The notes below the pieces were generated by a model. The model was not told the DNA's origin. It made no database searches and saw nothing but the letters and a program-made list of their open reading frames with translations. The position numbers and the translations under genes were made by a program. A DNA stretch of 64,000 nt, taken from an uncultured Acidobacteriota bacterium. Lineage in GTDB: Bacteria; Acidobacteriota; Vicinamibacteria; Vicinamibacterales; CAVVIG01. Shown here one piece after another: positions 2,271 through 63,775 of the stretch; the stretch's first letter is position 1; every line of letters begins with the position of its first letter. Where the stretch lies: NCBI GenBank assembly GCA_963728825.1, contig CAVSLA010000005.1, positions 254,634 through 318,633 of the forward strand, read 5' to 3'.

Positions 2271-2392
2271 TATCGTCCGGGTGCTATCCTAACATCCGCT
2301 TCCCGAACGCGAGGACGACGACCGCACGACGCGGAGGACGTTTTCCCGTCCTGTTCCCGATACACGCGAGCGCCACGGTGCGAGCGTGTCGC

Positions 2393-2414
2393 GCGCGGGG
2401 GTGGGGCCCCGCGC
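2393..2414 (+). repeat. GC hairpin element, copy at aroB (GCGCGGGG-GTGGGG-CCCCGCGC)
   Basis: The 14-nt core GGGGGTGGGGCCCC lies at 2397-2410 and ends 12 nt before the aroB ATG (2423). It forms an 8-bp stem with a 6-nt loop. Confidence 0.75.
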
Positions 2415-2422
2415 ATTCAAAC

Positions 2423-3499
2423 ATGACTCGCATCGACGTCGACACACCGTCCCGCCGCTACGCCGTCACGCTGGATGATGGGCTCCTCGAACGGCTGCCG
2501 CGGCTGCTCGAAGAAGTGAAGGCGCCGGCGCGCCGCTTCATCGTCTCGAGCCCGCTCGTCTGGCGCTTTCACGGTGCGCGGCTGGCCAAGGTCGGCATCG
2601 GCGAGCCAATCCTCGTGCCCGACGGCGAGCGATTCAAGAACCTTCAGAACGTCTCGCGCGTCTACGAGACGCTGATTCGCGCCAACGCCGATCGCGCCTC
2701 CACGCTGCTGACATTCGGCGGCGGCGTGATCGGCGACATGGCCGGATTCGCGGCGGCCACCTACCTGCGCGGCATCGCGCTGATCCACGTGCCCACGACG
2801 CTGCTCGCCCAGGTGGATGCGTCGATCGGCGGAAAAGTCGGCGTCAACCATGCGCTCGGAAAAAATCTGATCGGGGCGTTTTATCAGCCGGCTGCCGTGG
2901 CGATCGACCCCTCGGTGCTGAACACGCTGCCGCGCCGCGAGTTCCGGGCCGGACTCTACGAGGTGATCAAGTACGGCATGACCTCGAGCCGCGAGCTGTT
3001 CGAGCAGGTGGGACGCGAGCGAACCGCGATTTTCTCGAAGGAGCCCGGTCCGCTGACGTCGGTGATTGCCGCCTCGTGCCGCATCAAAGCGACGGTCGTG
3101 GCGGCCGACGAAAAGGAGGCCGGACCGCGCCGGGTGCTGAACTTCGGGCATACGGCGGGACACGCGCTGGAGGCGGTGACGAAGTACCGCCGCTATCGCC
3201 ACGGCGAGGCGGTTGCTTACGGGATGCTCGTCGCCGCCGAGCTCGGCGTGATGCGCGGCGCCCTTGCCGCCGCCGATCGGGCTGCCCTGGCCAGCCTGAT
3301 CGCCAGCCTCGGGCCCCTCCCACCGATTGCGGATGTCACCACACGGGAGATCCTCGAGGCGATGCAGCACGACAAGAAGATGGTTGCCGGCCGGCTCAAC
3401 TTCGTCCTGCCCACGGGCATCGGCAGCACGACGATCGTCGACGACATCACGGAGAAGGAAATGAAGGCGGCGTTGGTGAAGGTCGGATTAAAGAAATAA
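2423..3499 (+). CDS. aroB: 3-dehydroquinate synthase
   Basis: ORF track 2378..3499, with an in-frame ATG at 2423 (MTRIDVDT). Motifs: GGGVIGDMAGFAAATYLRG, PTTLLAQVDASIGGKVGVNH and NFGHTAGHALE. Confidence 0.9.
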   Translation: MTRIDVDTPSRRYAVTLDDGLLERLPRLLEEVKAPARRFIVSSPLVWRFHGARLAKVGIGEPILVPDGERFKNLQNVSRVYETLIRANADRASTLLTFGGGVIGDMAGFAAATYLRGIALIHVPTTLLAQVDASIGGKVGVNHALGKNLIGAFYQPAAVAIDPSVLNTLPRREFRAGLYEVIKYGMTSSRELFEQVGRERTAIFSKEPGPLTSVIAASCRIKATVVAADEKEAGPRRVLNFGHTAGHALEAVTKYRRYRHGEAVAYGMLVAAELGVMRGALAAADRAALASLIASLGPLPPIADVTTREILEAMQHDKKMVAGRLNFVLPTGIGSTTIVDDITEKEMKAALVKVGLKK

Positions 3500-3504
3500 C
3501 CCTA

Positions 3505-3551
3505 GAGATTTCAGGATTTGAGGATTTTAGGATTTGAGGATTTGAGGATTT
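3505..3551. repeat. array of six octamer words [G/C/T]AGGATTT (left arm)
   Basis: Reads gagattt caggattt gaggattt taggattt gaggattt gaggattt, starting right after the aroB stop. Confidence 0.8.
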
Positions 3552-3607: not shown

Positions 3608-3634
3608 GTTCGCGGGCGGTCCGTTCCCGTTCTG

Positions 3635-3678
3635 AAATCCTCAAATCCTGAAATCCTGAAATCTCATTTGAGGATTTA
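3635..3678. repeat. array of complementary words AAATCCT[C/G] (right arm, inverted relative to 3505-3551)
   Basis: Reads aaatcctc aaatcctg aaatcctg aaatctca, then tttgaggattta. It pairs as an inverted repeat with the left arm. Confidence 0.8.
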
Positions 3679-7747: not shown

Positions 7748-9158
<1,411 letters not shown>

Positions 9159-15958: not shown

Positions 15959-16536
15959 TAGCTTGCCTTTCGCGTTTTCACGCTGATGACTCGAGCCTCG
16001 TCCGGGAGCCGCCTGCCTCCGCCCGCCTCTTGCGTGTCGGCGTCACCGCGGGAGCGCCACCGCGACACCATCACCTGCAGGATGAGCGTGTTGTTCGGAT
16101 TGGTCGGCAGTGGTTCGACCGACCAGCGGCGGACGTAGACCGTGTTCGGCGGCGCGTTGGTGCCGCCGCCGAGCGACTGGCCGCCGCCGTCGAGGAAATC
16201 GCAGTAGCCGTCGACGTTCCGGCGAAGCGCGTCGCCGGGAGACGGGGTGAGGCCGGGGCCGCCGGTCGGGAGCTCCGGGACGACGCTCAGGTCGCTGGTC
16301 GTGTCGGACAGCGGTAACCCGATCGTGTCGAAGCCCCACGTCAGCCCGCGGAGCTGCTCCATCTTCTGCTGCGCCAGCACCGACGCGACGGTCGTGAGCC
16401 GCGCGCTCTGATTCGCCTTGGTCGAAATCAGGAAGAGCTGAGCGAGCGAGGCCAGCGCCACCGTCATGATGGTGGTGGCGACCAGCGTCTCGACCAGCGA
16501 GAACCCGCGTTCGTTACTGCAGCTGGATTTTGCCAA
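15958..16536 (-). CDS. pilV: PilV-like minor pilin (set 1)
   Basis: ORF track, 192 aa. Motif ERGFSLVETLVATTIMTVALASLAQLF. Confidence 0.6.
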   Translation of the reverse strand: MAKSSCSNERGFSLVETLVATTIMTVALASLAQLFLISTKANQSARLTTVASVLAQQKMEQLRGLTWGFDTIGLPLSDTTSDLSVVPELPTGGPGLTPSPGDALRRNVDGYCDFLDGGGQSLGGGTNAPPNTVYVRRWSVEPLPTNPNNTLILQVMVSRWRSRGDADTQEAGGGRRLPDEARVISVKTRKAS

Positions 16537-18577: not shown

Positions 18578-19038
18578 GATCCCGCCTTGCGCGATCTCAC
18601 GCTGACGAGATGGACCTCGCCGGCCGATCGCGGCGCCGTTACCCAGACCTGCAGCACGACGGCGTTGCCGGCAGCCGACGCCAGGGGATCGATCGACCAG
18701 CGGCGGACGTACTGCGTTCCGGGCGGCGCATCCCCGGAGGTGCCGATCGCCTGAGCGTTGCCGTCGAAGAAATCGCAGCAGCCGGCGCTGGCCTCCGCCG
18801 GCCAGACGATGGTTCGCAGCTGCTCCATCTGGTCCTGCGCGAGGATCGAGGCCGCGGTGGTGACCCAGGCCGCCTGGCCGCCGCTTCGCGCCAGGATCAT
18901 CAGCTGCGCAAGCGATACGAGGCCGACCGTGAGAACCGTCGCCGCCACCAGCGCCTCGACCAGCGAGAATCCGTCTTCGTATCGTGCGAGCGGGCGATTG
19001 AACACGCCATCTCGAAGTGCAAACCGTGCTCCGCGCAT
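18574..19038 (-). CDS. pilV: PilV-like minor pilin (set 2)
   Basis: ORF track, 154 aa. Motif EDGFSLVEALVAATVLTVGLVSLAQLM. Confidence 0.55.
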   Translation of the reverse strand: MRGARFALRDGVFNRPLARYEDGFSLVEALVAATVLTVGLVSLAQLMILARSGGQAAWVTTAASILAQDQMEQLRTIVWPAEASAGCCDFFDGNAQAIGTSGDAPPGTQYVRRWSIDPLASAAGNAVVLQVWVTAPRSAGEVHLVSVRSRKAGS

Positions 19039-23889: not shown

Positions 23890-23899
23890 TTCTCTCAAG

Positions 23900-24006
23900 G
23901 GTGCCGGGGGCAGGGTGCCGGGGGCCGGGTGCTCGGTGCCGGGGGCCGGGTGCTCGGTGCCAGGTGCAGTGTGCTCGGTGCCGGGTGCCGCGCCGCGGGG
24001 TGCCAG
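23900..24006. repeat. GGTGCC-word array, including two 21-nt tandem units (left arm)
   Basis: Reads ggtgccgggggca gggtgccgggggcc, then gggtgctcggtgccgggggcc twice, then degenerate copies. Confidence 0.75.
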
Positions 24007-26262: not shown

Positions 26263-27684
26263 TCAACGGAGGTTGTATTTCTTCACGTAATAGCGAAACG
26301 ACCGGAAACTCATGCCCAGCAGTTCCGCCGCCTTCACTTGTACGCCCCCTGCCCGCTCGAGCGCTTGCGCGATGTACGCGCGCTCTATCTCTTTGACGTG
26401 CGCTTCGAGATCAAAGCCGGTGGCTGGCAGCGCGTCCGATGCGCGAGGCGCCCCCCGCGCCGCTGCGGTCCGGACCGTGGGAGGCAGGCTCTCGGGAAGG
26501 ATGGTCGGCGACCGCTCGAGCGCCACTGCCCGTTCCATCACGTTCTCGAGCTCGCGGATATTGCCGGGCCAGTCGTACTGCTGCAGCAGATCGAGCGCCG
26601 CCCCGGCGATGCCGGTGATCGGCTTGGCCATCTGCTCGCCGTATTTCGCGAGGAAGTGGTCGGCCAGGAGCGGGATGTCCTCCCGGCGTTCGCGCAACGG
26701 CGGCAGCGCAATCGGAATCACATTGATGCGGTAGAAGAGATCCTCACGGAAACGCCCGTCACCGACCGCCTTGCCAAGATCCTGGTTGGTCGCCGCGATC
26801 ACCCGGATGTCGGCCTGAAGCTCTTCGAGGCCGCCGACCCGCCGGAAGCGGCGCTCCTGGAGGACGCGCAGGAACTTCACCTGCATCACGGCGCTCATCT
26901 CGCCGATCTCATCCAGGAAAATCGTCCCCTTTTCGGCGACTTCGAGCAGTCCCTTCTTGTTCGTCTCGGCGCCGGTGAACGCGCCGCGCATGTGTCCGAA
27001 CAGCTCCGACTCGAGCAGCGTTTCGGGCATCGCGCCGCAGTTCAGCGAGACCATCGGGCGGTCGCGCCGCAGCGAGTGGAAGTGAATCGCCTGCGCCACC
27101 AGCCCCTTGCCGGTGCCAGACTCCCCCGTCAGGAGGATCGTGCTGTTGGTGCGCGCGACGGTCTCGATCATCTTGAAGACGTCGAGCATCGACGCGCTGC
27201 GGCCGATGATGTTCGCGAACTGATGCGAGAGTCCGAGCGTCCGCTTCAGCAGGACGTTTTCCTGCTTCAGCTGCCGGTTGTCGATCTTCTCCCGCACTTT
27301 CATCTTGAGCAGATCGATATCGAACGGTTTGCTCAGGTAGTCGCAGGCGCCGAGTCGCATCGCCTCGACCGCCGTTTCGGTCGACGCGAAGGCGGTGATC
27401 ATGATGCCGAGAATGTCCTGGTCGACGCGCTTGGCGGCGCGCAGCACGTCCACGCCGCTCAGGTCGGGCATCTTGATGTCGGAAATCAACAGGTCGATTG
27501 GCTCCTTCTCGATGAGCGCGATCGCCTCGCGGCCGTTCTCGGCGAGGAGCACGTCGTAGCCCTCGCGGCGCAGGACGATCGCCAGCAGCTCGCGCATCGA
27601 GCGCTCATCGTCGGCGACAAGAATCCGCGGCCGGCGGCGTTCGGTCGTGCTCGAGGTCGGTTCTAACGTATCGGTCTGGCTCAT
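26263..27684 (-). CDS. pilR: sigma-54-dependent response regulator of pilin expression
   Basis: ORF track, 473 aa. Receiver domain (ILVADDE...DLLISDIKMP), AAA+ domain (LLTGESGTGKGLVA, GAFTGA) and a C-terminal HTH. Located next to pilS and pilA. Confidence 0.85.
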   Translation of the reverse strand: MSQTDTLEPTSSTTERRRPRILVADDERSMRELLAIVLRREGYDVLLAENGREAIALIEKEPIDLLISDIKMPDLSGVDVLRAAKRVDQDILGIMITAFASTETAVEAMRLGACDYLSKPFDIDLLKMKVREKIDNRQLKQENVLLKRTLGLSHQFANIIGRSASMLDVFKMIETVARTNSTILLTGESGTGKGLVAQAIHFHSLRRDRPMVSLNCGAMPETLLESELFGHMRGAFTGAETNKKGLLEVAEKGTIFLDEIGEMSAVMQVKFLRVLQERRFRRVGGLEELQADIRVIAATNQDLGKAVGDGRFREDLFYRINVIPIALPPLRERREDIPLLADHFLAKYGEQMAKPITGIAGAALDLLQQYDWPGNIRELENVMERAVALERSPTILPESLPPTVRTAAARGAPRASDALPATGFDLEAHVKEIERAYIAQALERAGGVQVKAAELLGMSFRSFRYYVKKYNLR

Positions 27685-29348
27685 GTTGTGACTTCCGCAC
27701 GGGCGGGCAGCCGCACCGACACCGCAGTGCCCTCCCCCTGCCGTGAGCTCACCTGAATCTCGCCGTTGTAATCGGTGACGATGCGGTGGACGATGGCGAG
27801 ACCCAGCCCGCTGCCCTTGGCAAAACTGCCGTGGAACGGCTGAAACAGGCCATCCAGCTCTTCCGGCGCGATCCCGATGCCCTCATCCCTGACCGTGATG
27901 ACGAGGCTGTCCGAGCCCGACTCAGACAAGCCGACCAGTTTCAAGCGGCCGCCCCCCGGCATCGCCCGGAGCCCATTGGTCGCCAGATTCCACACAATCT
28001 GCTTGATCTGCCCCTCGTCCGCTTCGAACCACAGCTCGCTGGATGGCACCTCCACCTCGATGAGGTGATCGTCCCTCACTTCCGCGCTGTTCCGCAGGAG
28101 CAGCGCCGTATCGTTGAGCGCCCGCCGCACGTCGAAGCGGGCGATCTCGAATCGCTGCGGCCGGGCGTAGGCGAGAAACGATCGGATGGTGCTGTTGAGT
28201 CGCTCCGACTCGCGCAGCACGATGTCCATCAGCTGCTCCTGCTCGGCGCTGAGCGGCAGCTCCTGCCGCAGAATCTGAATCGATCCGGACATCGACGCGA
28301 GCGGATTCCTGATCTCGTGGGCAATGCCGGCCGCCATCTCGCCGACGGCCGCCAGCCGCTGCTGCATCCGCGCATCGCGTTCGAGCTTCTTGATGTCGGT
28401 GACGTCCTGAAAGGTGATGAGATAGCCGGCGCGCCCGCCCGGCGTCTGAAGATGCGCGACGCCGAGTCCGAGATCGATTTCGCCGCGATCGTCGCCCCGC
28501 CGGAAACGGAACTCGAAGCGGCGGCCCGGGGCGGCGGTGTGTTGTAGCCCGTGATCGAGCGAGTCGGCCAGAAATTTCGGCAGCTGCAGGACCTCCGACA
28601 CATGACGCCCCACGACCGACGCGAACGGCAGGCCGGTGATCGCCTCGGCGCCGTGGTTGAACGTCAGGATGCGCTGCTGTCGATCGGTGGTGGCCAGTCC
28701 ACTCGGCAGGCTGTCGATGACGTGCTGGTTCAGCGCCTGCAGATCGGCGATCTCGGTCGACGCCTGCTCGAGACGGGCGCCGGCCGAGCGGACGCTCTCG
28801 GCAAGCGAGCCGCTCAGCAGCGCGACCGCAAAAAACCCGAACAGATTGATGGCCACGGTATATTGCGCCGTCGCGCCGGTCGGCAGGACGACACGGCCGG
28901 CCGACAGCCACGGGTCGATCAGAATGCCCGCCGCCGTGAGGTATTGCAGGAAGACCATCCCGACGTAGATCACCGCGCTGGCGCTCGCCACCAGCAGGGC
29001 GCCGCGGCGGAAGCGAACCACGCTGGCGGCGACGATCGGCAGCACATAGAGCGACGAGAAGTAGCTGGCCACGCCGCCCGTGATGTAGATGAACGCCGAC
29101 ACGATCAGCGCATCGGTCGCCAGCTGGATGTCGACCAGCCACCGGAAGCGATCCACGAAGCGCAGCGTCGACGCGTAGGCGATCGTGATCGCGTAGGTGC
29201 AACCCACCAGGAAGAAGAACGGGTTGACCGGAAACGATCCGGGAGAGGTGATCTGCGCGACGATCGCGCCGCCGAGCAGAATCGTGCTGATGATCGCCCG
29301 GATGGCGATCAGCCAGGCGACGCGGCGGCGCAGGTCAGTAGCGAGCAT
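27681..29348 (-). CDS. pilS: sensor histidine kinase with a multi-TM N-terminus and PAS domain
   Basis: ORF track, 555 aa. About six TM segments, H-box AAGIAHEIRNPLASM, and an HATPase domain (DEGIGI, GSGLGLAIV). 4-nt overlap with pilR. Confidence 0.8.
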   Translation of the reverse strand: MLATDLRRRVAWLIAIRAIISTILLGGAIVAQITSPGSFPVNPFFFLVGCTYAITIAYASTLRFVDRFRWLVDIQLATDALIVSAFIYITGGVASYFSSLYVLPIVAASVVRFRRGALLVASASAVIYVGMVFLQYLTAAGILIDPWLSAGRVVLPTGATAQYTVAINLFGFFAVALLSGSLAESVRSAGARLEQASTEIADLQALNQHVIDSLPSGLATTDRQQRILTFNHGAEAITGLPFASVVGRHVSEVLQLPKFLADSLDHGLQHTAAPGRRFEFRFRRGDDRGEIDLGLGVAHLQTPGGRAGYLITFQDVTDIKKLERDARMQQRLAAVGEMAAGIAHEIRNPLASMSGSIQILRQELPLSAEQEQLMDIVLRESERLNSTIRSFLAYARPQRFEIARFDVRRALNDTALLLRNSAEVRDDHLIEVEVPSSELWFEADEGQIKQIVWNLATNGLRAMPGGGRLKLVGLSESGSDSLVITVRDEGIGIAPEELDGLFQPFHGSFAKGSGLGLAIVHRIVTDYNGEIQVSSRQGEGTAVSVRLPARAEVTT

Positions 29349-29357
29349 CTTCTTTAC

Positions 29358-29446
29358 TGGCGCCGGGGCCCCACCCCCGGCGCGTTCTCACGCTGATGCC
29401 TCGCCTCGGACTCACTCGTCCTCGGCTCGGCATGGCCGCAGCCGCT
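29358..29446 (-). repeat. about 90-nt intergenic element carrying the GC hairpin (copy at pilS); near-identical to 52226-52318
   Basis: Hairpin GCGCCGGGG-CCCCAC-CCCCGGCGC (plus-strand reading) at 29360-29383, with the 14-nt core at 29365-29378. A second imperfect hairpin follows (gatgcctcgcctcgg ... cctcggctcggcatgg). Confidence 0.75.
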
Positions 29447-34800: not shown

Positions 34801-34829
34801 GCTGACAGTATCGGTCGTAGCGGTCTCAG

Positions 34830-34961
34830 ATTGGTGTCAAAGCGGGGTCGGAGACCTGTCAGAACGGTATCGGAGCGGTGTCAGAGCAGTGTCGGAGGAG
34901 TGTCGGAGCAGTCTCAGACAGGTGTCAGAGCGGTGTCAGACCTATGTCGGAGCAGGGTCGG
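34830..34961. repeat. 12 strictly phased 11-bp units, consensus AGC[G/A]GTGTC[A/G]G, with degenerate copies back to about 34801
   Basis: Hand segmentation gives units ending at 34840, 34851, 34862 and so on to 34961, with no phase slip. It fills the spacer between the pdaD stop and the start of the barrel gene. Confidence 0.85.
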
Positions 34962-34971
34962 AGCCGCCTTG

Positions 34972-37780: not shown

Positions 37781-39000
<1,220 letters not shown>

Positions 39001-39004
<4 letters not shown>

Positions 39005-40305
39005 GAAGCAGCCTGCTCGGCGAAGTCGTGCTGATGGCGCTCGATACGGTGCGCACCAACAAGCTGCGCTCGGCGCTGACCGTACTCGGCGTCGTGATCG
39101 GCATCACGTCGATCGTCGGCATGACGGCGATGATTCGCGGCTTCGACGAATCGCTGCGTGACTCGGTCCGTGAGATCGGCCCCAACATCATCTTCGTGCA
39201 GCGGTTCGGCCCGACCAGTTTCACGAGCGGCGACATCTTCAACCAGCTGATGAAGCGGCCCAACCTGACGATCTCCGACGCACGCGCCATCGAAGAAGAG
39301 GCGCCGACCATCCAGCTGGTCGACGTCCAGCTTGGCGCCGGCGGCTTCGGCCCGCCCACTCAGGAACGGATCTTCTACCGCGAACAGCGGACGCGTCCGA
39401 TCATCGTGTTCGGCACGACTGAAAACTTCGCGGTCGGCACGAGTCTCGAGCTGACCGCCGGACGTTTCTTCACCGGCACCGAGGTGCAGTATCGCAAGAA
39501 CGTCGTCGTCCTTGGCCAGACGCCGTTCCAGGCCTTGTTCGGGGAAACCGGCACCGACCCGGTGGGAAAGATCGTGCGGGTCGGGGCGGAGCGCTACACC
39601 GTGATCGGCGTGTTCGAAAAGCGCCCGGCGGTCGGCGGCTTCAACGCCGGACAGGACGACTTCGTCGTCATTCCCTACACGAGCTATCAGCGGCAGTTCG
39701 GTCTGGGCGGCATGTTCTTCAGGCAGGGCCGCAACTCGACCGAGATGGTACCGATTCAAATTGCCGCCGTACCGCGCGACGGGGTGCCGCAGGCCGAAGC
39801 CATCGCCGACGTCCAGCGGGTGATGCGGGTCCGGCATGGCCTCCGGCTCGACGAACCGGACGACTTCGACATCCTGACCCAGGACGCCATCCTGCAGCTC
39901 TGGGACCAGATCAGCCAGGCGACGTTTCTGGCACTGGTGGTGATCTCGTCAATCGCCCTGATGGTCGGCGGCATCGGCGTGATGGCGATCATGTCGATCT
40001 CGGTCACCGAGCGCACGCGCGAGATCGGCGTCCGCAAGGCGCTCGGCGCCAGGCGGGCCGAGATCCTCTTTCAGTTTCTGATGGAAGCGGCGTTTCTGAC
40101 GTCGCTCGGCGGCGTCCTCGGAATCGTGCTGGGCGCCGTGATCGGCTGGATCGTCCACCTGGTGTCCGGGTTTCCGATCTCGCTGCCGTGGTGGTCGTTC
40201 GCCCTCGGACTCGGGTTCTCTGCGTCGGTCGGCATCTTTTTCGGGATGTACCCGGCCTTCAAAGCGTCCAGGCTCGACCCTATCGAAGCGCTGCGCTACG
40301 AATAG
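39001..40305 (+). CDS. MacB-type (FtsX family) ABC permease without an ATPase domain, copy 2
   Basis: In-frame GTG at 39001 overlaps the upstream stop, with an alternative ATG at 39034, within ORF 38266..40305. Sequence LDTVRTNKLRSALTVLGVVIG...ERTREIGVRKALGARRAEI. Confidence 0.7.
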
Positions 40306-43300
40306 ACAGCCCGCTGTCCAGCGGCATTCCGGTCATCGCCAGGAATTCGTTCAACTCCCGGGTCGCCACCGCGAGACGGGTGTCGCCAGTTTCCGCGTAG
40401 CAGTCGCGGCGGAGCAATAGGAAGTCGCGCGCCCATGGGACGTTGGGCTCGAGCGTGCCGATCGCCTGCGCGCAGAGCCCCTTGAAGTCCACGTAGGTGG
40501 TCAAGAGCGCGAGGGCGCCGCGACGGCGGTGATCGGCGACCTTCACCGCGAACGGCTCGCGCAGCGCCTCGAACATCCGCCGGGCGAGGACGGGGTTCAC
40601 CGACCCGAGCGCCTGGGCCCGTGCCACGGCCTTGTGCGCAAATCTCGGCAGCGCCCAGGCATCGCGGCGGAAGGTCGCGAACGCGCTCTCCAGCGCCGCC
40701 GCCGAGGCCTCGTAGTCGCGCTGAACGAAGCGCAGTTCCGCCAGGAGCACATCGGCCTCGCCGGCGTGATACGGCCGGAGCCGATCGATCGTCTCGAGCG
40801 CGGCCGCGTCGCCGGCCGACGCCTGGAGGTCGGCCAGCATCGCGATCTCGTTCATGTCGGCGGGCGGCAGCGACTGCTGCGCCCAGGCGGCGCGAGCCGC
40901 GGGGATGTTGTCTTCGCGGAAATAGCGGATGAGCGCGAGCTGACGCGCCTGATCGCCGGCCGGCGATCCCGGATTCACCTGCAGCAAGCCTCCATCCGCG
41001 GACATCTGGCTGATCCGCGACATCTCGACGGCCGCCCAATCGATCGGTCCGTCGACCGCGGGACGCGTGGCGCCGATCGCCTGGGCTAGCAACCGAATCT
41101 GCGACACGATGTCGTATTCCCGTCCCAGCGAGCGGGCGAAGCCAAACTCCACGACATTGCGGTCGTCGGTATTGATCCGAACGCCGGGCGCGGCGGCAAT
41201 CGCCCGTGTCAGCTGATCGCCGGCGAGATAACGGGCCAAAAAGCCGTGCAGGTCGCTCGCGCGCCAGGCGACCCGCAACGCGGAGCGGTACGGCTCTTCG
41301 CGAAGCCGCGCGGCGAGCCGCGCGACATCGTAGACGGGTGCCCGTTTGGCCGCGACCAGCACGATGTCGCCGCCACGCGTCTGCCAGGTCTCGACCGACG
41401 GAAAGACCGATGCCACCGTTGCATAGACGGTCCGGACCGCGGCCGCATCGACGCCGTAGGCCTGCAGCCATTGCATGAAGATGCCGTCGTCGGTCAACCG
41501 ATCGTTGGCGGCGCGGTAGTAGTCCTGTGTGAACAGACTCGCCACCCCCGCGCGGAACGGATTGGAGGGCTCCGACGCAATCAGGTCGTAGCGCTCGCTG
41601 GTCGTCAAAAGGACTTCGCGCGCGTCGCCGACGCGGACATGCACTTTCGGGTTGTTGAGCACATCCTGGTTCACGGCGACCGACTTGCGCGCCACTTCGA
41701 GCACGATCGACTCGAGCTCGACGACGTCGACGTGTTCCATCGACGGGACGGCGCCGAGCCAGCCGGCGGAGCTGCCGGTGCCGAGCCCGATGACCAGTGA
41801 TCGTTTGGGATTCGGATGCAGGATGCTGCCGATCAGCGCGAGCATCACCTGCGTGCCGGCGTCGACGCGTGCGCTGCCGTCCGTCTTGCCGTTGACGATG
41901 AACGCGTAACCGCCGCTGCCGACCGACAGCGCGACGCTGCTTTCAAATCCATCTGCCTGCCACTCGACGTAGCCGCGCTGCGTATGGATCCAGCTGCGCA
42001 GGTCCTGTGGCGAGGTGATGGTGGTGATGCCGGACGTGCCCGAGGCGATCCCGCTGTGGCGCCAGACTGCCGTCGGCCCGATCGCTGTCAGGAACAGAAT
42101 CGTCACGCCGGCGAGCGCCAGGGCCGGAAGCGCGGGCTGCCAGCGCGTCGCCTGCGTCCTGACCGACATGACGGCCGCCGCGATGCCAAGCGCCACGAGA
42201 CAGAGCGCCGCGAACCGCCATGCGCCGGGTACCGTCATGAGCGGCAACACCAGGAATCCACCCGCCAGCGATCCGGCAATCGCACCAAGCGTGTTGGCAG
42301 CGTAGGCGAGACCGATCTGGCGGCCGACGTTCTCGCGGCCGCGGCCGAACAGCGCGATGAGCTGCGGAAACTGATAGCCGGCGATGATCGCGGCGGGCAG
42401 CACGACAATCGCGGCGACAATCGTCCAGCCCGCCACGAGGGCGCTGAACGCCGCCTGACCGAGCGGGATCAGGACCAGCGCGAGCAGCGCAATCCGATCG
42501 CCGAGCGCGAAGGCGAGGGCGATCGCGGCTGCCTCGAGCAGACAGGAGGTCGCCAGCCCCGCGAGCGACGCCGGCCGGTTGACGCCGATGAGCGAGTACA
42601 ACAGGCCGCCCACGCCGATCCCGACCAGCGCGACGGCGAGAATGAGCCCGAAGGTGAACACCGACCCGCCGAGCAGCGGACCAAGCATCCGGTACCAGAC
42701 CAGCTCCATCAGGAAGAACGCGAACCCGACCGTGCCCGACGCGACCAGCAGGAACCAGGTCGGCGCCTGGGCCCCGATTGCCGCCGTCGGCGCAGCCTCT
42801 TCGTCGCCGGCTTCCTCGGCGACGCTGGACGACCGATCGACCTGGCGGGCCAGGACGACGACGAGAATGTTCAGGCCGGCGGCCAGCCAGAGCGTCTGAC
42901 GCGTGCCGAAGATCTCGAGCATGTAAAAGGTCGAGGCCACGCAGCCGGCGACCGCGCCGAGCGTGTTCAATCCGTACAGCGTCGCGACATCCTGGCGCCG
43001 CGCATCGCTGCCGCGCGTCACGCCGCGGGCCGCCGCCGGCAGCGTGCCGCCCATGACGAAGGTCGGCACCGCGAGCACGATCGTGCTGAGGACCAGACGC
43101 AGCAGGGTTCCCGCCGCCGTCCCGAGCTGCAGCGTGCCGCCGAGCGAGAAATAGATGAACTGAACGGCGCTCAAGATGAACGGGGTCAGCGCCGCGGACA
43201 CGGCGACGATCGTTTCAAGCTGCGCGTAATAGAGAATCGGCCGCGGATGGCGGTCGGCGCGCGGGCCGAGGAAGAGGCCGCCCAGCCCGAGACCGCCGAC

Positions 43301-43480
43301 GAAGATCGCCAGCACCGCGGCCGATGCGGCGGTGGACGCGCCGAAGATCAGCCGGAACTCGCGCATCCAGGCGGTCTGATAGATGAGCGCCGAGCAGCCG
43401 GATCCGAAAAGGAGCAGCGCCACCCGCCATGCCTGAGCTCGCGGCGGAGCAGCCCCGACGGTCGTATCGAGAGCAGTCAT
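40280..43480 (-). CDS. fused multi-TM (MFS-like) / spermidine-synthase-like methyltransferase-fold protein with a long helical C-terminal domain
   Basis: ATG at 43480 (alternative 43510) within ORF 40280..44098. About 12-14 TM segments, then LVIGLGTGSSAGW...YDLIASEPSNPF (spermidine synthase / SAM-MTase fold), then a helical tail of about 350 aa. Confidence 0.65.
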   Translation of the reverse strand: MTALDTTVGAAPPRAQAWRVALLLFGSGCSALIYQTAWMREFRLIFGASTAASAAVLAIFVGGLGLGGLFLGPRADRHPRPILYYAQLETIVAVSAALTPFILSAVQFIYFSLGGTLQLGTAAGTLLRLVLSTIVLAVPTFVMGGTLPAAARGVTRGSDARRQDVATLYGLNTLGAVAGCVASTFYMLEIFGTRQTLWLAAGLNILVVVLARQVDRSSSVAEEAGDEEAAPTAAIGAQAPTWFLLVASGTVGFAFFLMELVWYRMLGPLLGGSVFTFGLILAVALVGIGVGGLLYSLIGVNRPASLAGLATSCLLEAAAIALAFALGDRIALLALVLIPLGQAAFSALVAGWTIVAAIVVLPAAIIAGYQFPQLIALFGRGRENVGRQIGLAYAANTLGAIAGSLAGGFLVLPLMTVPGAWRFAALCLVALGIAAAVMSVRTQATRWQPALPALALAGVTILFLTAIGPTAVWRHSGIASGTSGITTITSPQDLRSWIHTQRGYVEWQADGFESSVALSVGSGGYAFIVNGKTDGSARVDAGTQVMLALIGSILHPNPKRSLVIGLGTGSSAGWLGAVPSMEHVDVVELESIVLEVARKSVAVNQDVLNNPKVHVRVGDAREVLLTTSERYDLIASEPSNPFRAGVASLFTQDYYRAANDRLTDDGIFMQWLQAYGVDAAAVRTVYATVASVFPSVETWQTRGGDIVLVAAKRAPVYDVARLAARLREEPYRSALRVAWRASDLHGFLARYLAGDQLTRAIAAAPGVRINTDDRNVVEFGFARSLGREYDIVSQIRLLAQAIGATRPAVDGPIDWAAVEMSRISQMSADGGLLQVNPGSPAGDQARQLALIRYFREDNIPAARAAWAQQSLPPADMNEIAMLADLQASAGDAAALETIDRLRPYHAGEADVLLAELRFVQRDYEASAAALESAFATFRRDAWALPRFAHKAVARAQALGSVNPVLARRMFEALREPFAVKVADHRRRGALALLTTYVDFKGLCAQAIGTLEPNVPWARDFLLLRRDCYAETGDTRLAVATRELNEFLAMTGMPLDSGLSIRSAALR

Positions 43481-43583
43481 TCCGTCGAACGTTATCGGCC
43501 GGGACCACATCGGGCTATAGCCGCTGCCCCGTCCTTCGAATATGATCCGCCTTTGGACGTGGCTCTGAAATAGGCGGGCATGA

Positions 43584-43601
43584 GCGGGGGAGGGGCCCCG
43601 C
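43584..43601 (+). repeat. GC hairpin element, copy at the EF-G gene (GCGGGG-GAGGGG-CCCCGC)
   Basis: Core GGGGGAGGGGCCCC at 43586-43599 ends 13 nt before the ATG at 43613. The following GCGAGGGTAAACG resembles the rpsE copy (GCGAGAAAGTAAAA). Confidence 0.7.
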
Positions 43602-43612
43602 GAGGGTAAACG

Positions 43613-45709
43613 ATGAAGGTCTACGACGCCGCCAGCATCCGTAACGTCGCGCTTGTCGGACACACCGGTTCGGGAAAGACCCAGCTCGCCGCAGCCATTC
43701 TGTCGACCGCGGGCATGGTGAACCGGTTCGGCAAAGTGGACGAAGGAACGACCGTCACCGATTTCGACGAAGAAGAGATCGCCCGGAAACACACCTTGTC
43801 GGCCAGCCTCGCCTACGCCGAGTGGAACAAGCACAAGGTCAACCTGATTGACACGCCGGGCATCGGCAACTTCTTGAGCGACGCGCGCGCGGCCCTGACG
43901 GTCGCCGATGCCGCGCTGGTGGTGGTGGACGCGGTTGCCGGCGTGATGGTGCAGACCGAAAAGGTCTGGGCGGCGGCCGACGAGCTGCAGCTTCCCCGGC
44001 TCGTCGTCCTGAATCGGTTCGATCGCGATCGCGCCAGCCTCGATCGCGCGCTGCAGTCGCTGCGCGAGGCATGCGGCCGTACCGTCATTCCGATTCAACT
44101 GCCGATTGGCGAGGAGAAGTCGTTCCGCGGCGTGGTCGATCTCGTCACCAGGAAGGCGTACACCTACCAGACGGACGAGAGCGGCAAGTTCACCGAGGGC
44201 GCGGTATCCGGCGAGATGGCGCCCGCGGTCGAGGCGGCGCGCGAGGCCCTCGTCGAGATGGTGGCCGAAGCTGACGAAAAATTGATGGAAAAGTTTTTCG
44301 AGGCCGGCACGCTCACGGACGAGGAACTGGTCGCCGGTTTGCGCGGCGCCATCGCCACCGGCCGGGTGTTCCCGCTGCTGTGTGTCTCGAGCCTGCTAAA
44401 CATCGGCGTCCAGCCGCTGCTCGACGCCATCGTGGCCTACGTGCCATCACCGGTCGAGCGGCCCTTCAAGGGACTCGACAAGAGCGGCGCCGAAGTGCTC
44501 CGCAAGGCCGACGACAAGTCGCCGGTCGCGGCGTTCGTGTGGAAGACCGTTGCCGACCCGTTCGCCGGCCGCATCACGATGTTCCGCGTGGTGTCGGGCA
44601 CGCTCAAGTCGGACTCGACGGTCCACAACAAGACCAAAGACGTGCCGGAGCGGCTCGGTCACCTCCAGTTGCAGCAGGGCAAAACACCGTCGACGGTCCC
44701 GGACATTAAGGCCGGTGACCTCGGGGCCGTCGCCAAGTTGAAGGACACCCAAACCAACGACACCATCGGCGACAAGGCGGACCCGACCACCTTCCCGCCG
44801 CTCAAATTCCCTGAGCCGGTGCTGTCGTACGCCATCGAGCCGAAAACCCGCGGCGACGAGGACAAGATCAGCACGTCGATGCACCGGCTGGAAGAGGAAG
44901 ACCCGTCGATCAAGTACAGCCGCGATCCGCAGACCAAGGAGCTACTGCTGTCCGGACAGGGTCAGCTGCATATCGAGGTCACGGTCGCGAAGCTGAAGCG
45001 TCGCTTCGGCGTCGACGTCAACCTCAAGCCGCCGCGGATTCCGTACCGCGAGACGATCAAGGCCTCGACCGAAGCGCACGGCCGACACAAGAAGCAGACC
45101 GGCGGCCACGGGCAGTTCGGCGACTGCAAGATCAAGGTGGAGCCGCTGGCGCGCGGCGCCGATTTCGAGTTCGTCGACGATATCTTCGGCGGCTCGATTC
45201 CGCGGCAGTTCGTACCGGCGGTCGAAAAGGGGATCCAGGACGCGAGGACCCGGGGATATCTGGCCGGCTACCCGATGGTCGACTTCCGCGTGACCGTGTT
45301 CGACGGCTCGTACCACGACGTCGACTCGAACGAGCTCTCGTTCAAGCTCGCCGGCTCGCTCGCCTTCAAAGACGCGATGACCCGCGCGCGGCCGACGATT
45401 CTCGAGCCGATCATGAACGTCGAGGTCTACGCGCCGTCGGACTACGCCGGCGACCTGATGGGTGACCTCAACGGCCGGCGGGGCCGCATCGGCGGCATGG
45501 ACACGCGCGGCGGCACGACCGTCATCAAGGCGCAGGTGCCGATGTCGGAGATGCTCACCTACGAGCAGCATCTCACCTCCGCCACCGGCGGCCGCGGCTC
45601 GTACCACATGGAGTACTCGCACTACGACGAAGTGCCGACGCCGCTCCAGGCGAAGATCATCGCCGCGGCCAAGGCCGAACGCGCTGGCGTGGAAGTCGAA
45701 GAGGTCTGA
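43613..45709 (+). CDS. fusA: elongation factor G family GTPase (located outside an str operon)
   Basis: ORF track, 698 aa. G1 GHTGSGKT, G3 DTPG, and full-length EF-G domain order (…GGHGQFGDC…). Confidence 0.8.
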   Translation: MKVYDAASIRNVALVGHTGSGKTQLAAAILSTAGMVNRFGKVDEGTTVTDFDEEEIARKHTLSASLAYAEWNKHKVNLIDTPGIGNFLSDARAALTVADAALVVVDAVAGVMVQTEKVWAAADELQLPRLVVLNRFDRDRASLDRALQSLREACGRTVIPIQLPIGEEKSFRGVVDLVTRKAYTYQTDESGKFTEGAVSGEMAPAVEAAREALVEMVAEADEKLMEKFFEAGTLTDEELVAGLRGAIATGRVFPLLCVSSLLNIGVQPLLDAIVAYVPSPVERPFKGLDKSGAEVLRKADDKSPVAAFVWKTVADPFAGRITMFRVVSGTLKSDSTVHNKTKDVPERLGHLQLQQGKTPSTVPDIKAGDLGAVAKLKDTQTNDTIGDKADPTTFPPLKFPEPVLSYAIEPKTRGDEDKISTSMHRLEEEDPSIKYSRDPQTKELLLSGQGQLHIEVTVAKLKRRFGVDVNLKPPRIPYRETIKASTEAHGRHKKQTGGHGQFGDCKIKVEPLARGADFEFVDDIFGGSIPRQFVPAVEKGIQDARTRGYLAGYPMVDFRVTVFDGSYHDVDSNELSFKLAGSLAFKDAMTRARPTILEPIMNVEVYAPSDYAGDLMGDLNGRRGRIGGMDTRGGTTVIKAQVPMSEMLTYEQHLTSATGGRGSYHMEYSHYDEVPTPLQAKIIAAAKAERAGVEVEEV

Positions 45710-52167: not shown

Positions 52168-52225
52168 GACCGTTCTCTAGCGAGTCGACCGCTAGCGGCC
52201 TCTCTCGCTGTCAACTTTTTTCCAG

Positions 52226-52318
52226 TGGCGCCGGGGCCCCACCCCCGGCGCGTTCCTACGCTGATGCCGCGCCTCGGACCAAGAACCGGTTCCTCGGCTC
52301 GGCATGGCCGCAGGCGCT
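52226..52318 (-). repeat. about 90-nt intergenic element carrying the GC hairpin (copy at rplQ); near-identical to 29358-29446
   Basis: Hairpin at 52228-52251, with the core at 52233-52246. It shares ggcgccggggccccacccccggcgcgttc..acgctgatgcc.cgcctcgg...cctcggctcggcatggccgcag.cgct with the pilS copy. Confidence 0.75.
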
Positions 52319-54070: not shown

Positions 54071-54083
54071 ACTTCCTTTCGGT

Positions 54084-54222
54084 GAGATTTGAGGATCTGG
54101 GATTTCAGGAGTTTAGGATTTGGGATCTCAGTCCTCAGACCGAAATCCGGATCCAAAACCTCACATCCAAACCCCTCAACTCCAAATCCTCAATTCCTGA
54201 GATCCTAAAATCCTGAAATCTC
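54084..54222. repeat. inverted arrays of GAGGATTT-family words between rpsK and rpsD
   Basis: Forward words at about 54084-54130 (gagattt gaggatct gggattt caggagtt taggattt gggatct). Complementary words at about 54150-54222 (aaatcc...aaatcctc aattcctg agatccta aaatcctg aaatctcc). Confidence 0.8.
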
Positions 54223-54225
54223 CGA

Positions 54226-58237: not shown

Positions 58238-58684
58238 TCAGGCAATGATTTCGGTTGCGCCGCCGGCGGCCGCGATTTTCTCCGCGGCTTTGCCGCTGAA
58301 CTTGTGCGCGTGGACCGTGAGGTTCTTCGTGACCTCGCCCCGTGCGAGGATCTTCACCGGACGGTTACGGCCCCCCACCAGGCCGCGCTCTCGGAGCATA
58401 TCCGGTGTCACGATGGTGCCGGCATCGAACTTCTGCGCGAGCGTGTCGAGGTTCACGACTTCGTACTGCACGCGGAACGGATTGTGGAAGCCGCGCTTCG
58501 GCACGCGGCGGTGCAGCGGCATCTGGCCGCCCTCGAAGCCGCGCTTGAACTTGAAGCCGGACCGCGACTTGGCACCCTTGTGCCCGCGCCCCGCCGTCTT
58601 CCCCTGCCCCGACCCCTGGCCGCGCCCGACCCGCTTCTTGGAATGCTTGGCGCCCTTCGGGGGTTTCAGATTCCCTAAATCCAT
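58238..58684 (-). CDS. rplO: 50S ribosomal protein L15
   Basis: In-frame ATG at 58684 ([26 protein letters not shown]) within ORF 58238..58738. Confidence 0.85.
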
Positions 58685-58734
58685 AAATCCCAAATCCTCA
58701 AATCCTGAAATCCTCAAATCCTGAAATTTCAGGA
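58685..58734. repeat. GAGGATTT-family word array between rpmD and rplO
   Basis: Plus strand reads aaatccc aaatcctc aaatcctg aaatcctc aaatcctg aaatttcaggatc. A 14-nt palindrome CCTGAAATTTCAGG lies at 58720-58733. The words continue into the first rplO codons. Confidence 0.8.
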
Positions 58735-58935
58735 TCACTCCACCGTGACGAGATGACGGACCTTGTGGATCATGCCCCGGGTCGCCGGCGTGTCTTTCAA
58801 CTCCACGGTGTGCCGGATGCGCCGCAATCCGAGGCCGCGGACCACCGTCTCCTGGTTCTTGTTGAACCCGATCGGGCTCTTGACGAGCGTCACCTTCACG
58901 GTGCCGCCTTTCGCGTCAGTTCGTTGATTGGCCAT
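58735..58935 (-). CDS. rpmD: 50S ribosomal protein L30
   Basis: ORF track, 66 aa. [28 protein letters not shown]. Confidence 0.85.
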
Positions 58936-58955: not shown

Positions 58956-59474
58956 CTACGCCGTTTTGCGCGACAGCTCCTCGATGTCCTTGCCCCGCAT
59001 CCGCGCAATCGTCACCGGATCCTTCAGGGAATCGAGCCCGGCGATCGTCGCCCGGACGACATTGTGCGGGTTTGCCGATCCCAGCGACTTGGTCAGGATG
59101 TTGGTAATCCCGGCCGATTCGACCACCGCCCGCACCGCGCCGCCGGCGATGATGCCGGTCCCGTCGGGAGCCGGCTTCAGCAGCACGCTGCCGGCGCCGA
59201 ACTGTCCGACGATCGGATGGGGAATCGTCGTTCCCTGCAACGGCACCCGGATCAGGTTCTTCTTGGCGGCCTCAATCCCCTTCTTGATGGCCGACGGCAC
59301 TTCCTTGGCCTTGCCCACGCCGAAGCCAACGACGCCGTGGCCGTCACCGACCACGACCAGCGCGCTGAAGCTCAGGTTCTTGCCGCCCTTGACGACCTTC
59401 GTGACGCGGTTGATCGAAACGACCGTGTCCTTGATGTCGAGCTGGCTGGCGTCGATTCGTTCGCGTGTTCGCAT
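58956..59474 (-). CDS. rpsE: 30S ribosomal protein S5
   Basis: In-frame ATG at 59474 ([36 protein letters not shown]) within ORF 58956..59630. Confidence 0.9.
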
Positions 59475-59486
59475 TTTTACTTTCTC

Positions 59487-59598
59487 GCGGGGCCCCACCC
59501 CCGCTCGTGCTTCGACGTTGCTCAGCACGACCCTGAGCCTGTCGAAGGGTCGCAGACGCGCTCGCACCGTGGTGCTCGCGCGTATCCAGAACCGGACG
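59487..59598 (-). repeat. intergenic element with the GC hairpin (59487-59504) and a tail shared with the 63-bp repeat
   Basis: Core at 59489-59502, 14 nt from the rpsE ATG. The tail gcgcgtatccagaaccggacgtc (about 59578-59600) matches ggcgtatccagaacaggacgtc of the units at 63602-63775. Confidence 0.7.
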
Positions 59599-59973
59599 TC
59601 AGAACTCCAATCCAGCTTTCCGCGCGGCATCCGCCACGGCGCGGATGCGACCGTGATACAGGAAGCCGCTCCGGTCGAAAACCACCCGCTTGATCCCTTT
59701 TTCGATCGACCGCTCGGCGATCGCCTTGCCGATGGCCTCGGCTCCCTTGACGTTGCCGCCGCTGATGCCCTGGCTGAACGTGCCTTTCAGGGCCGGATCG
59801 ACGCTCGACGCGGCCACCAGGGTCCGGCCGCTCAGATCATCGATCACCTGCGCGTAGATGTGAGACACGCTACGGAACACGCTCAAGCGCGGCCGCTCGT
59901 CCGTGCCGGCAATGCGCTTGCGCTGCCGCAGCTGTATGCGATGCCGGCGATCGTCCTTCGTCTGAATCTTCAT
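59599..59973 (-). CDS. rplR: 50S ribosomal protein L18
   Basis: ORF track, 124 aa. [20 protein letters not shown]. Confidence 0.9.
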
Positions 59974-61111: not shown

Positions 61112-61297
61112 TCACCAACTGCTCTTGGTCACCCCTGTGACATCGCCCTCGAGCGCCAGCTTGCGGAAGCACAGGCGGCACAGTGCGAACTTACGCATGT
61201 AGGCGCGCGGCCGGCCACAGAGGTGGCAGCGGTTGCGCAGGCGAATCTTGTACTTCGGCGTCTTCTGCTCTTTGGCGATCTTTGCTGTCGTTGCCAT
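61112..61297 (-). CDS. rpsN: 30S ribosomal protein S14, zinc-binding type Z
   Basis: ORF track, 61 aa. [22 protein letters not shown]. Confidence 0.9.
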
Positions 61298-61321
61298 AAG
61301 CGGTGTCTACTTCTTTCAATG

Positions 61322-61345
61322 GCGGCGGGGCCCCACCCCCGGCGC
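61322..61345 (-). repeat. GC hairpin element, copy at rpsN (one stem mismatch)
   Basis: Core at 61327-61340, 29 nt from the rpsN ATG. It is followed by agtgagccgcaggcgctactgctgcc, which resembles the 3' part of the element at 52226-52318. Confidence 0.7.
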
Positions 61346-61369
61346 ATTTCTCACAGTGAGCCGCAGGCG

Positions 61370-61912
61370 CTACTGCTGCCGGAACGGCATGCCGACGAAC
61401 TGCAGGAGCTTGCGCGCCTCCTGATCGGTCTTCGCCGTCGTCACCACCGAGACGTTCATGCCACGCGCCTTGTCGACCTTCATGTAGTCGATCTCGGGAA
61501 ACAGCAGCTGATCGCGCAGGCCGAGCGTGTAGTTGCCGCGGCCATCGAAGCCGCGCGGCGACACGCCCTTGAAGTCGCGGACACGCGGCAGCGCAATGTT
61601 CATCAGCCGGTCGAGGAATTCCCACATCCGCTCCCCGCGCAGCGTGACCATCGTCCCGATCGGCATGCCTTTTCGAACCTTGAACGCGGCAATCGACTTC
61701 TTCGCGCGGCGCGTCACCGGCTTCTGCCCAGTGATGCGCGACACCTCGTCGGCGCCGGTGTCGACGATCTTGGCGTTCGAGGTTGCCTCGCCCAGCCCCA
61801 TGTTGACGACCACCTTCGTGATCTTGGGGACGGCCATCACGTTCTTGTAGCCGAACTCCTTGGTGAGTGCGGCGATGACTTCCTGCTGGTATTTCTCTTT
61901 CAGCCGGCTCAT
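61370..61912 (-). CDS. rplE: 50S ribosomal protein L5
   Basis: In-frame ATG at 61912 ([31 protein letters not shown]) within ORF 61370..62002. Confidence 0.9.
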
Positions 61913-63140: not shown

Positions 63141-63562
63141 AGCATCTTCTCCTGCGCGAAGCGCGTGGCGAACTTGGTGAGGATCGGCAGCTTCGACGCG
63201 GCCAGCTTCATCGCTTCGCGCGCCTCCGTCTCGGTGACCCCTTCCATCTCGAACAGCACCCGTCCGGGACGGATGACCGCCACCCACTGCTCCGGCGCGC
63301 CCTTGCCCTTGCCCATCCGCGTTTCCTGCGGCTTCTTGGTGATCGGCTTGTCGGGAAACACGCGGACCCAGATCTTGCCACCGCGCTTGATGAACCGGGT
63401 CATCGCGACGCGCGCCGCCTCAATCTGCCGATCCGTCAGCCAGCACGGCTCCAGCGCCTTGATGCCGTAGTCTCCGAACGAGACGTCACCGCCGCGCCAC
63501 GCCTTGCCGCGCATCCGGCCGCGCTGCTGCTTCCGGTATTTCACCTTCTTGGGCATCAACAT
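63137..63562 (-). CDS. rplP: 50S ribosomal protein L16
   Basis: ORF track, 141 aa. [19 protein letters not shown]. Confidence 0.9.
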
Positions 63563-63575
63563 CGTTTTATCTCTC

Positions 63576-63593
63576 GTGGGGCCCCACCCCCAC
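63576..63593 (-). repeat. GC hairpin element, copy at rplP (GTGGGG-loop-CCCCAC)
   Basis: Core at 63578-63591, 15 nt from the rplP ATG. Confidence 0.7.
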
Positions 63594-63601
63594 TCGCCGA
63601 C

Positions 63602-63775
63602 GCCTTCGCGCCGTAGCGCTCGGCGTATCCAGAACAGGACGTCGCCGCGCTTCCATACTCCGATGCCTTCGCGCCGTAGCGCTCGGCGTATCCAGAATAG
63701 GACGTCGCCGCGCTTCCATACTCCGATGCCTTCGCGCCGCAGCGCTCGGCGTATCTAGAACCGGACGCTAGGCGG
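63602..63775. repeat. 63-bp tandem repeat, about 2.75 copies, between rpsC and rplP
   Basis: Units start at 63602, 63665 and 63728 (gccttcgcgccgtagcgctcggcgtatccagaacaggacgtcgccgcgcttccatactccgat), with 1-3 substitutions between copies. The period also shows as a 21-aa repeat in the spurious ORF 63504..63758. Confidence 0.9.

Follow-up and report, generated by a model that had tools for sequence, protein, structure and literature searches.

Seven intergenic copies of a conserved hairpin

The window, meaning the whole 64-kb stretch of DNA analysed, contains seven intergenic sites at which a 14 nt core, GGGGGWGGGGCCCC (that is, GGGGG[T/A]GGGGCCCC), lies shortly upstream of a start codon. The downstream genes, whose identities were confirmed by Pfam, and the distances from the end of the core to their start codons are aroB (12 nt), an EF-G-family gene (13 nt), rpsE (14 nt), rplP (15 nt), a pilS-like kinase gene (16 nt), rpsN (29 nt) and rplQ (65 nt). 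All seven copies are in the sense orientation relative to the downstream gene. Five are flanked by co-directional gene pairs, while the aroB and EF-G-family copies are found in divergent intergenic regions, bordered on the other side by minus-strand genes encoding an FAD flavoprotein and a spermidine-synthase-domain protein, respectively.

A sequence-only reading of this DNA had listed these seven cores by position and strand, and had described them as intergenic, of one polarity relative to the downstream gene and 12-65 nt before the starts. All of this was reproduced, including the start codons, and none of the cores is expected by chance: the seven exact matches to GGGGGWGGGGCCCC compare with none in 100 dinucleotide-preserving shuffles, and allowing two mismatches added only matches at the chance level. 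A covariance model of the hairpin, constructed from 77 copies and run against the window without filters, returned the same seven cores with scores of 32.6-43.6 bits, the next match scoring 13.9 bits; this unfiltered search found no degenerate or antisense copies in the window, and no core inside its coding sequence. The subsequence GGGGCCCC occurs at eight sites in the window, seven of them inside cores.

Each window copy is predicted to fold into a GGGG/CCCC stem with an extension, capped by a GUGGGG loop (-13 to -22.7 kcal/mol), which agrees with the earlier proposal that the first G run pairs with the CCCC run to leave a G[T/A]GGGG loop. The tail and AUG are unpaired in these predicted folds. 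The accompanying claim that the bases extending the stem remain complementary was right as regards covariation, described below, but does not apply in full to every copy, as the rpsN stem includes one C-C mismatch and stems of the GAGC...GCGA type (rpsE, EF-G and rplP) extend the core by 2 bp only, followed by tandem G.A/A.G mismatches. Similarly, the purine-rich ribosome-binding stretch said to begin directly after the 3' arm exists as a purine-rich tail, but it partly overlaps the stem extension.

Table 1. Positions of the seven composite repeats and their modules in the 64-kb window
Feature	Position	Strand	Remarks
rplR-rpsE composite repeat	59472..59598	-	fills entire spacer
rpsE copy, 5' module: CGTCCGGTTCTGGATAC + hairpin ACGCGC-GA-GCAC-CACG-GUGC-GA-GCGCGU	59555-59598	-	
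rpsE copy, second hairpin module	59510-59547	-	
rpsE copy, core hairpin	59484-59506	-	core 59489-59502
rpsE copy, tail AAAGTAAAA + rpsE ATG	59472-59483	-	
Composite repeat upstream of rplP	63560..63767	-	
rplP copy, three tandem 63-nt units of GTTCTGGATACGCC...GGCGTC hairpin module	63597-63767	-	79-100% identity between units (repeat detected over 63581-63769)
rplP copy, core hairpin	63573-63595	-	
rplP copy, tail AGATAAAACG + rplP ATG	63560-63572	-	
rplE-rpsN spacer repeat	61295..61370	-	
rpsN copy, 5' module GCGCCTGCGGCTCACTGTGAGAAAT	61346-61370	-	adjoins rplE TAG stop
rpsN copy, core hairpin	61322-61345	-	
rpsN copy, tail CATTGAAAGA, then AGTAGACACCGCTT + rpsN ATG	61295-61321	-	
rpoA-rplQ spacer repeat	52208..52317	-	rplQ ATG 65 nt past core
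rplQ copy, 5' module GCGCCTGCGGCCATGCC-GA-GCC-GA-GGAAC...GTCC-GA-GGC-GC-GGCAT...	52252-52317	-	
rplQ copy, core hairpin	52228-52251	-	
rplQ copy, tail CACTGGAAAAAAGTTGACAG	52208-52227	-	
Repeat between pilC (T2SSF domain) and pilS-like kinase gene	29346..29445	-	
pilS copy, 5' module	29384-29445	-	subfamily shared with rplQ copy
pilS copy, core hairpin	29360-29383	-	
pilS copy, tail CAGTAAAGAAG + ATG	29346-29359	-	
Composite repeat, aroB 5' leader	2333..2425	+	divergent intergenic region
aroB copy, hairpin	2333-2352	+	
aroB copy, GTTCCCGATAC...hairpin module	2353-2390	+	
aroB copy, core hairpin	2393-2414	+	
aroB copy, tail ATTCAAAC + ATG	2415-2425	+	
Minimal copy before EF-G-family gene	43582..43615	+	divergent intergenic region; upstream module not recognisable
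EF-G copy, core hairpin	43582-43604	+	loop variant GAGGGG
EF-G copy, tail GGTAAACG + ATG	up to 43615	+	

Composite structure of the repeat

The core hairpin is the invariant 3' module of a mosaic repeat 35-210 nt in length. Full units run from variable GC-rich hairpin modules through the core hairpin to an A/purine-rich tail of around 10 nt that often ends in ATG. In the window, GTTCTGGATACGCC plus a hairpin module occurs at aroB and rpsE and, as three tandem units, at rplP; a GCGCCTGCGGCC... module is found at pilS, rplQ and rpsN; and a CTTCGACAGGCTCAGG... hairpin module is found at rpsE. Such upstream modules are always attached to a core and never occur alone in the window, and many comprise helices broken by tandem G.A/A.G mismatches. 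The boundary A/GCGCCTGCGGCC marks the start of the unit in 32 of 84 copies, at discrete distances of 47, 49, 56, 67 or 68 nt from the core.

The consensus of the tail is GCGAGC-A-K-T-R-A-N-A-A-A followed by TG or AG, and it often either ends in ATG or directly precedes a Shine-Dalgarno (SD) sequence. One subfamily has a tail that continues ...ATGCNGACAG (consensus ...GAAATGCNGACAG) and places an ATG at +14, even where there is no gene. Native SD sequences can be retained: comparing the rpsK-rpsD spacers of L184 and L188, for instance, the unit ends just 5' of the SD. The foot of the hairpin is often around 8 nt before the AUG.

Compensatory change in the stem, originally inferred from the seven window copies, is also seen in a set of 77 distinct copies. 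At pair 10-25, 36 copies have CG and 33 UA; at pair 9-26, 52 have GC, 12 CG and 5 AU; and at pair 6-29, 38 have CG and 30 GC. At least 15 complementary variants of the stem are represented. The stem obtains a covariation score of 0.342, whereas shuffles give 0.113 and slid partners no more than 0.133; as the copies are related by descent, however, this statistic and those on orientation overstate the independence of the observations.

Distribution across the Vicinamibacterales

A first scan for the family, using the core as the query against one genome per species, identified at least 119 loci. About half among the matches listed are in Acidobacteriota/Vicinamibacterales MAGs, and all of these have variable upstream modules, the covarying stem, the core and the A-rich tail; the other listed matches, in Streptomyces and elsewhere, look like chance occurrences or poly-G. 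A second scan kept the stem fixed and left the loop free (GAGCGGGG-N6-CCCCGCGAGC). The loop was GTGGGG in 104 of 127 matches, the rest being either single-base variants in genuine elements or unrelated; this amounts to 104 of approximately 112 genuine copies (93%). The loop is far more constant than the remainder of the unit. The sample of distinct copies, drawn from many Vicinamibacterales genomes, numbered 196, and the loci of this order contain hundreds of copies in all.

The element had initially not been recognised as one already described, and it is without a match in Rfam or the literature: Rfam returned nothing at gathering thresholds, and nothing on the elements at E < 5, while the literature yielded no paper containing the core string and none describing repeats in Vicinamibacteria. 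These units constitute a real and undescribed family of dispersed repeats that extends throughout the order Vicinamibacterales.

Insertion into ribosomal operons

The ribosomal junctions were compared in the S5 locus of 80 related species (67-92% S5 identity), with 20 operon genes mapped. The core is present at rplR-rpsE in one of 80 loci and at rplE-rpsN in none of 75, which does not support a selected structure at cistron starts, as earlier proposed, in the sense of one conserved at specific genes. Upstream of rplP there are two exact and two decayed copies among 69 loci, and the core is sporadic at the other ribosomal-operon junctions of the 80 species. The ribosomal junctions of close relatives have spacers of 3-7 nt. 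At rplR-rpsE the closest relatives have TAGgacATG or TAGgagcggtATG, with the A-rich tail also missing, and their rplE-rpsN spacers are 2-20 nt long. The rpsE spacer of around 120 nt, including the A-rich tail, is therefore an insertion, because the closest relatives are without it. Different subfamilies are found upstream of rplP in L149/L158, L168 and L167, which, together with the decayed copies, indicates independent insertions and later decay. Filled and empty orthologous sites were observed at the species level only; no strain-level empty or filled alleles emerged from exact look-ups of the S5 and L18 proteins or from a metagenome scan using the 5' 24-mer of rpsE.

The ancestral rpsE SD overlapped the rplR stop codon (TAGGAG in relatives) and is now about 130 nt from the rpsE AUG. 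This essential gene, encoding S5, is now preceded only by the hairpin, GAGAAAGUAAAA and the AUG. The native SD region of essential genes, rpsE among them, was replaced by these insertions.

Other repeats also occur in and around these operons. A second family in the window consists of arrays of the 8-mer AGGATTT[C/G/T] (sense strand) at 3506-3545 and 3632-3680, 54075-54225, and 58680-58738, the three sites being past aroB, within the rpsK-rpsD spacer and right before the rplO ATG. The arrays are inverted and would form long hairpins, and each unit includes an SD-like AGGA. Similarly, species-specific inverted arrays of 7-8 nt units, such as GGTGAATT, CAGCTGG, TTCAAAG and GGATTCAG, are found in the rpsK-rpsD and rpsC-rplP spacers of many Vicinamibacterales (L123, L132, L135, L164, L172, L176, L191 and others). 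The same ribosomal-operon junctions seem to collect hairpin-forming repeats in general. Elsewhere in the window are a tandem array with 11 nt periodicity (34814-34967; around 14 GTCRGAGCNGT-like units) and a G-rich 7/21 nt tandem repeat (23899-23996; GGGTGCCGGGGGC...). Three pairs of paralogous blocks of 73-80% identity (8285-8953 and 26784-27448; 38657-38843 and 39958-40144; 16349-16514 and 18815-18980) are presumably duplicated genes.

Proliferation within genomes

Tandem duplications of the repeat are common and include the three 63 nt units in the window, a six-copy array of a 102 nt unit in L026 (6740-7261) and a 173 nt duplication in L073 (cores at 6974-6987 and 7147-7160, minus strand). 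The last comprises the element together with the initial ~96 nt of a Ser/Thr kinase gene, creating pseudo-5' gene segments. Of 90 copies, 29 have their nearest neighbour in their own genome, where 3.2 would be expected, and neighbouring pairs within 300 nt are arranged head-to-tail in 21 instances and inverted in two. The units are polar insertions that multiply within genomes.

No terminal inverted repeats of the kind that characterise a MITE are evident, the 5' (A)GCGCCTGCGGCC not being complementary to the 3' ...CAKTRANAAA(TG). The flanks of a few copies match over 4-7 bp (AGTAG at rpsN, AAGATGC at pilS and GACAAGG in L050), and the mean longest flank match is 4.6, compared with 4.06 in controls; this excess is driven by tandem copies, and target site duplication is not significant once these are discounted. 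A crude six-frame scan of around 2.3 Mb of element-bearing loci for the HUH...Y..NP motif, using a regular expression, gave no candidate ORF.

Orientation and proximity to start codons

Ribosomal loci chosen independently of the motif and totalling 908 kb gave 16 covariance-model matches, all on the sense strand of the operon. For the 196 distinct copies, coding sequence was called by a crude GC3 heuristic 60-270 nt downstream of the core, giving 124 sense, 22 antisense and 42 absent calls. Of the 22 antisense calls, seven are artefactual and at most 15 real; in these 15, an opposite-strand gene ends 7-59 nt past the core, on the tail side. Approximately 85-89% of callable copies are in sense and upstream of the next gene, and around 11% point towards the 3' end of a gene on the opposite strand. 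The first ATG is 13-18 nt past the core in 93 of the 196 copies (47%), and at exactly 14 nt in 48. It is in frame with the downstream sense coding signal in 44 of 65 cases, against an expectation of one third, and some copies have no gene at their own ATG.

The sense bias and start proximity noted in the window thus recur in related genomes, and the description of the element as non-random, strand-specific and start-proximal is supported. The fixed distance that had been proposed is partly intrinsic, since the ~10 nt tail, and in one subfamily the ATG itself, is repeat sequence. The aroB and EF-G-family copies adjoin the ATG despite the length of their divergent intergenic regions, an arrangement better accounted for by targeting or function than by passive selection.

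In this sequence of 65% GC, spurious open frames of great length extend across elements and neighbouring genes on the minus strand at 40280-44098 and 58956-59630 of the window. One such frame, of 1272 codons, matches a spermidine-synthase domain only over residues ~750-900. The ATGs of the elements add to the risk of wrong start calls.

Several further features were looked for in the units. A MIRU-type embedded ORF does not fit, as the unit lengths (47, 49, 56, 67, 68 and 71 nt) preserve no frame and tail stop codons fall in frames 0, 1 and 2 in 18, 17 and 7 copies, with no frame preference. Leader uORFs starting at the element ATG and coupled through ATGA include several attractive examples but are not in excess (13 of 37, compared with 38 of 126 control frames). 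The unit is not an intrinsic terminator, given that the hairpin is followed by an A-rich tail, that the T-run precedes it on the other strand and that a terminator scan flagged no core. No sigma-70-type promoter was found in or near any window copy, though acidobacterial promoters may differ.

Comparison with known elements

Intercistronic or 5' stem-loops that stabilise mRNA include the ompA 5' hairpin, the malE-malF REP and the puf operon hairpins. The element described here resembles these in being, by prediction, a stable GC hairpin in polycistronic mRNAs adjoining a cistron boundary, but they are locus-specific or act as 3' protectors. REP/BIME/REPIN sequences are likewise short, GC-rich, extragenic, co-transcribed and abundant hairpins, and their stems vary in a compensatory way. 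REPs bear a GTAG or CGTC tag and are mostly organised as inverted dimers downstream of genes (PMC3733652); by contrast, the present units are untagged, single or head-to-tail, upstream of genes and in sense.

The Neisseria REP2 and Borrelia IR-A/IR-B sequences are dispersed 120-150 bp repeats immediately upstream of ORFs, with stem-loops, a ribosome-binding site (RBS) and an ATG (Delihas review, PMC3184786). The present repeat shares the location immediately upstream of ORFs and the internal stem-loops, and its RBS and ATG are part of the repeat, as the tail is conserved and is absent from empty sites. It differs from REP2 in that REP2 has a promoter, of which a scan for the sigma-70 consensus gave no sign in or near the window copies; in that REP2 numbers some 25 copies in one genus, while the present family is found in many species of an order; and in that many present copies are inside operons, between cistrons. 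There is no apparent sequence relationship. MIRUs, which are 40-100 bp long, are found inside operons, co-oriented with genes, and insert at start codons; relatives lack them at orthologous sites, and their tandem copy number varies (PMC12548453, PMC3184786). Again the present units are alike in their co-oriented location at start codons within operons and in their tandem copy variation. However, MIRUs sustain translation by means of an internal ORF that overlaps both flanking codons, stop and start (-4 coupling), whereas no conserved ORF or coupling was found in the present family, whose units end in a conserved GC hairpin and A-rich tail. REP2/Borrelia IR sequences and MIRUs are the functionally closest known elements, and neither is homologous to the present family, which is a new variant within the gene-proximal, polar intergenic repeats.

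Possible origins and functions

The core contains the palindrome GGGGCCCC and is invariant across species, as might be anticipated of a double-stranded DNA signal, whether a regulator or nucleoid-protein site, a methylation palindrome, an uptake sequence or a KOPS- or Chi-like motif; the EF-G variant also contains GGGNAGGG, which resembles the E. coli KOPS motif. Such a signal is highly improbable: GGGGCCCC is rare outside the elements, the core is always within a hairpin whose covariation disfavours this reading and never in the coding sequence of the window, its flanks are asymmetric, and its polarity tracks individual genes and not the replichore. A HIP-like palindrome, an uptake sequence, KOPS and Chi can be discarded on the confinement of GGGGCCCC to the elements and the per-gene polarity. 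It has greater plausibility, while still being quite unlikely, that the family is a classical REP/BIME, or a single-stranded DNA hairpin derived from IS200/IS605 and mobilised by an HUH tyrosine transposase (RAYT/TnpA), with the strand bias reflecting integration into single-stranded DNA and not constraints on RNA. In favour of this, the element is extragenic and present in many copies, as an imperfect GC-rich palindrome whose core is conserved and whose stem covaries; its hairpin is strand-specific and has tandem G.A mismatches, and, followed by a linker of ~10 nt, it resembles the right end of IS200/IS605. RAYT-like transposases exist in Acidobacteria (PMC3733652), yet the crude motif scan of element-bearing loci gave no candidate, and REPs are mostly downstream of genes (PMC3733652), not upstream. 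Fewer than 10% of copies have either GTAG or CGTC as a tag no more than 14 nt from the core (among 195, GTAG is upstream in 7 and downstream in 5, and CGTC upstream in 16 and downstream in 5). These tag counts and the scarcity of inverted pairs bear out the earlier view that this is not a randomly scattered REP, at least in the sense of a classical one. The orientation of the units, moreover, follows the gene strand even where that strand flips within the 64-kb window.

A host-selected, cis-acting RNA, serving as a 5' stabiliser, processing barrier, translational insulator or standby/platform-docking site and spread by function instead of selfishly, is a minority possibility. It would explain the strong bias in orientation and position, including the copies abutting an ATG in long divergent regions, the repeated acquisition of different subfamilies upstream of rplP, and the placing of the hairpin foot where an SD helix would sit. 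The constancy of the loop across an order, while the stems covary, also fits, and 74 of 83 copies have a more stable fold on the sense strand than on the antisense. Against this, nearly all of the 80 related species are without the element at the same junctions and some copies have decayed; a minority face the 3' ends of opposite-strand genes, and some ATGs are without a gene; and the tandem duplications and genome-specific clusters resemble proliferation at the DNA level. Signatures that might distinguish RNA from DNA were uninformative, G.U pairs not exceeding A.C pairs (11 and 10) and the asymmetry of GNRA/YNCG tetraloops being mixed.

The explanation preferred here, with a probability of roughly 0.6, is that these are proliferating, co-transcribed intergenic repeats, probably tolerated because their 3' end would supply an unstructured translation-initiation region. 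The unit would be transcribed together with the downstream gene, its GC-rich modules folding on themselves and the terminal hairpin fencing them off, so that the unpaired A/purine-rich tail could act as the ribosome-binding region. An insertion could then survive between tightly coupled essential cistrons, in this orientation and position only; in reverse, structured GC-rich RNA would be set against the start codon and the insertion presumably purged. The invariant loop and inner stem may be what the copying machinery, or else a host factor, recognises. Less favourable to this explanation, the scanned loci gave no mobilising enzyme, the search for terminal inverted repeats and a convincing target site duplication yielded neither, and the look-ups returned no polymorphism between strains.

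A stronger proposal, itself unlikely, is that the hairpin and ~8-10 nt A-rich tail form a self-contained, SD-independent initiation module carried by a mobile repeat, with the hairpin docking at the usual site of the SD helix, protecting a processed 5' end, or both. Were this true, the Vicinamibacterales would re-wire single cistrons, including those of essential ribosomal-protein operons, through a portable ribosome-binding site.

Implications

The built-in ATG and open GC-rich frames of these repeats will mislead gene-calling programs, and so represent a risk to annotation, while their tandem arrays are potential strain markers. Should the tail truly drive translation, the hairpin and tail together would be a natural, compact RBS insulator. 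The family adds an abundant, order-wide repeat to a poorly studied group of globally dominant soil bacteria, in which a selfish-looking element is found between tightly coupled, essential ribosomal-protein cistrons, apparently bringing its own initiation region.
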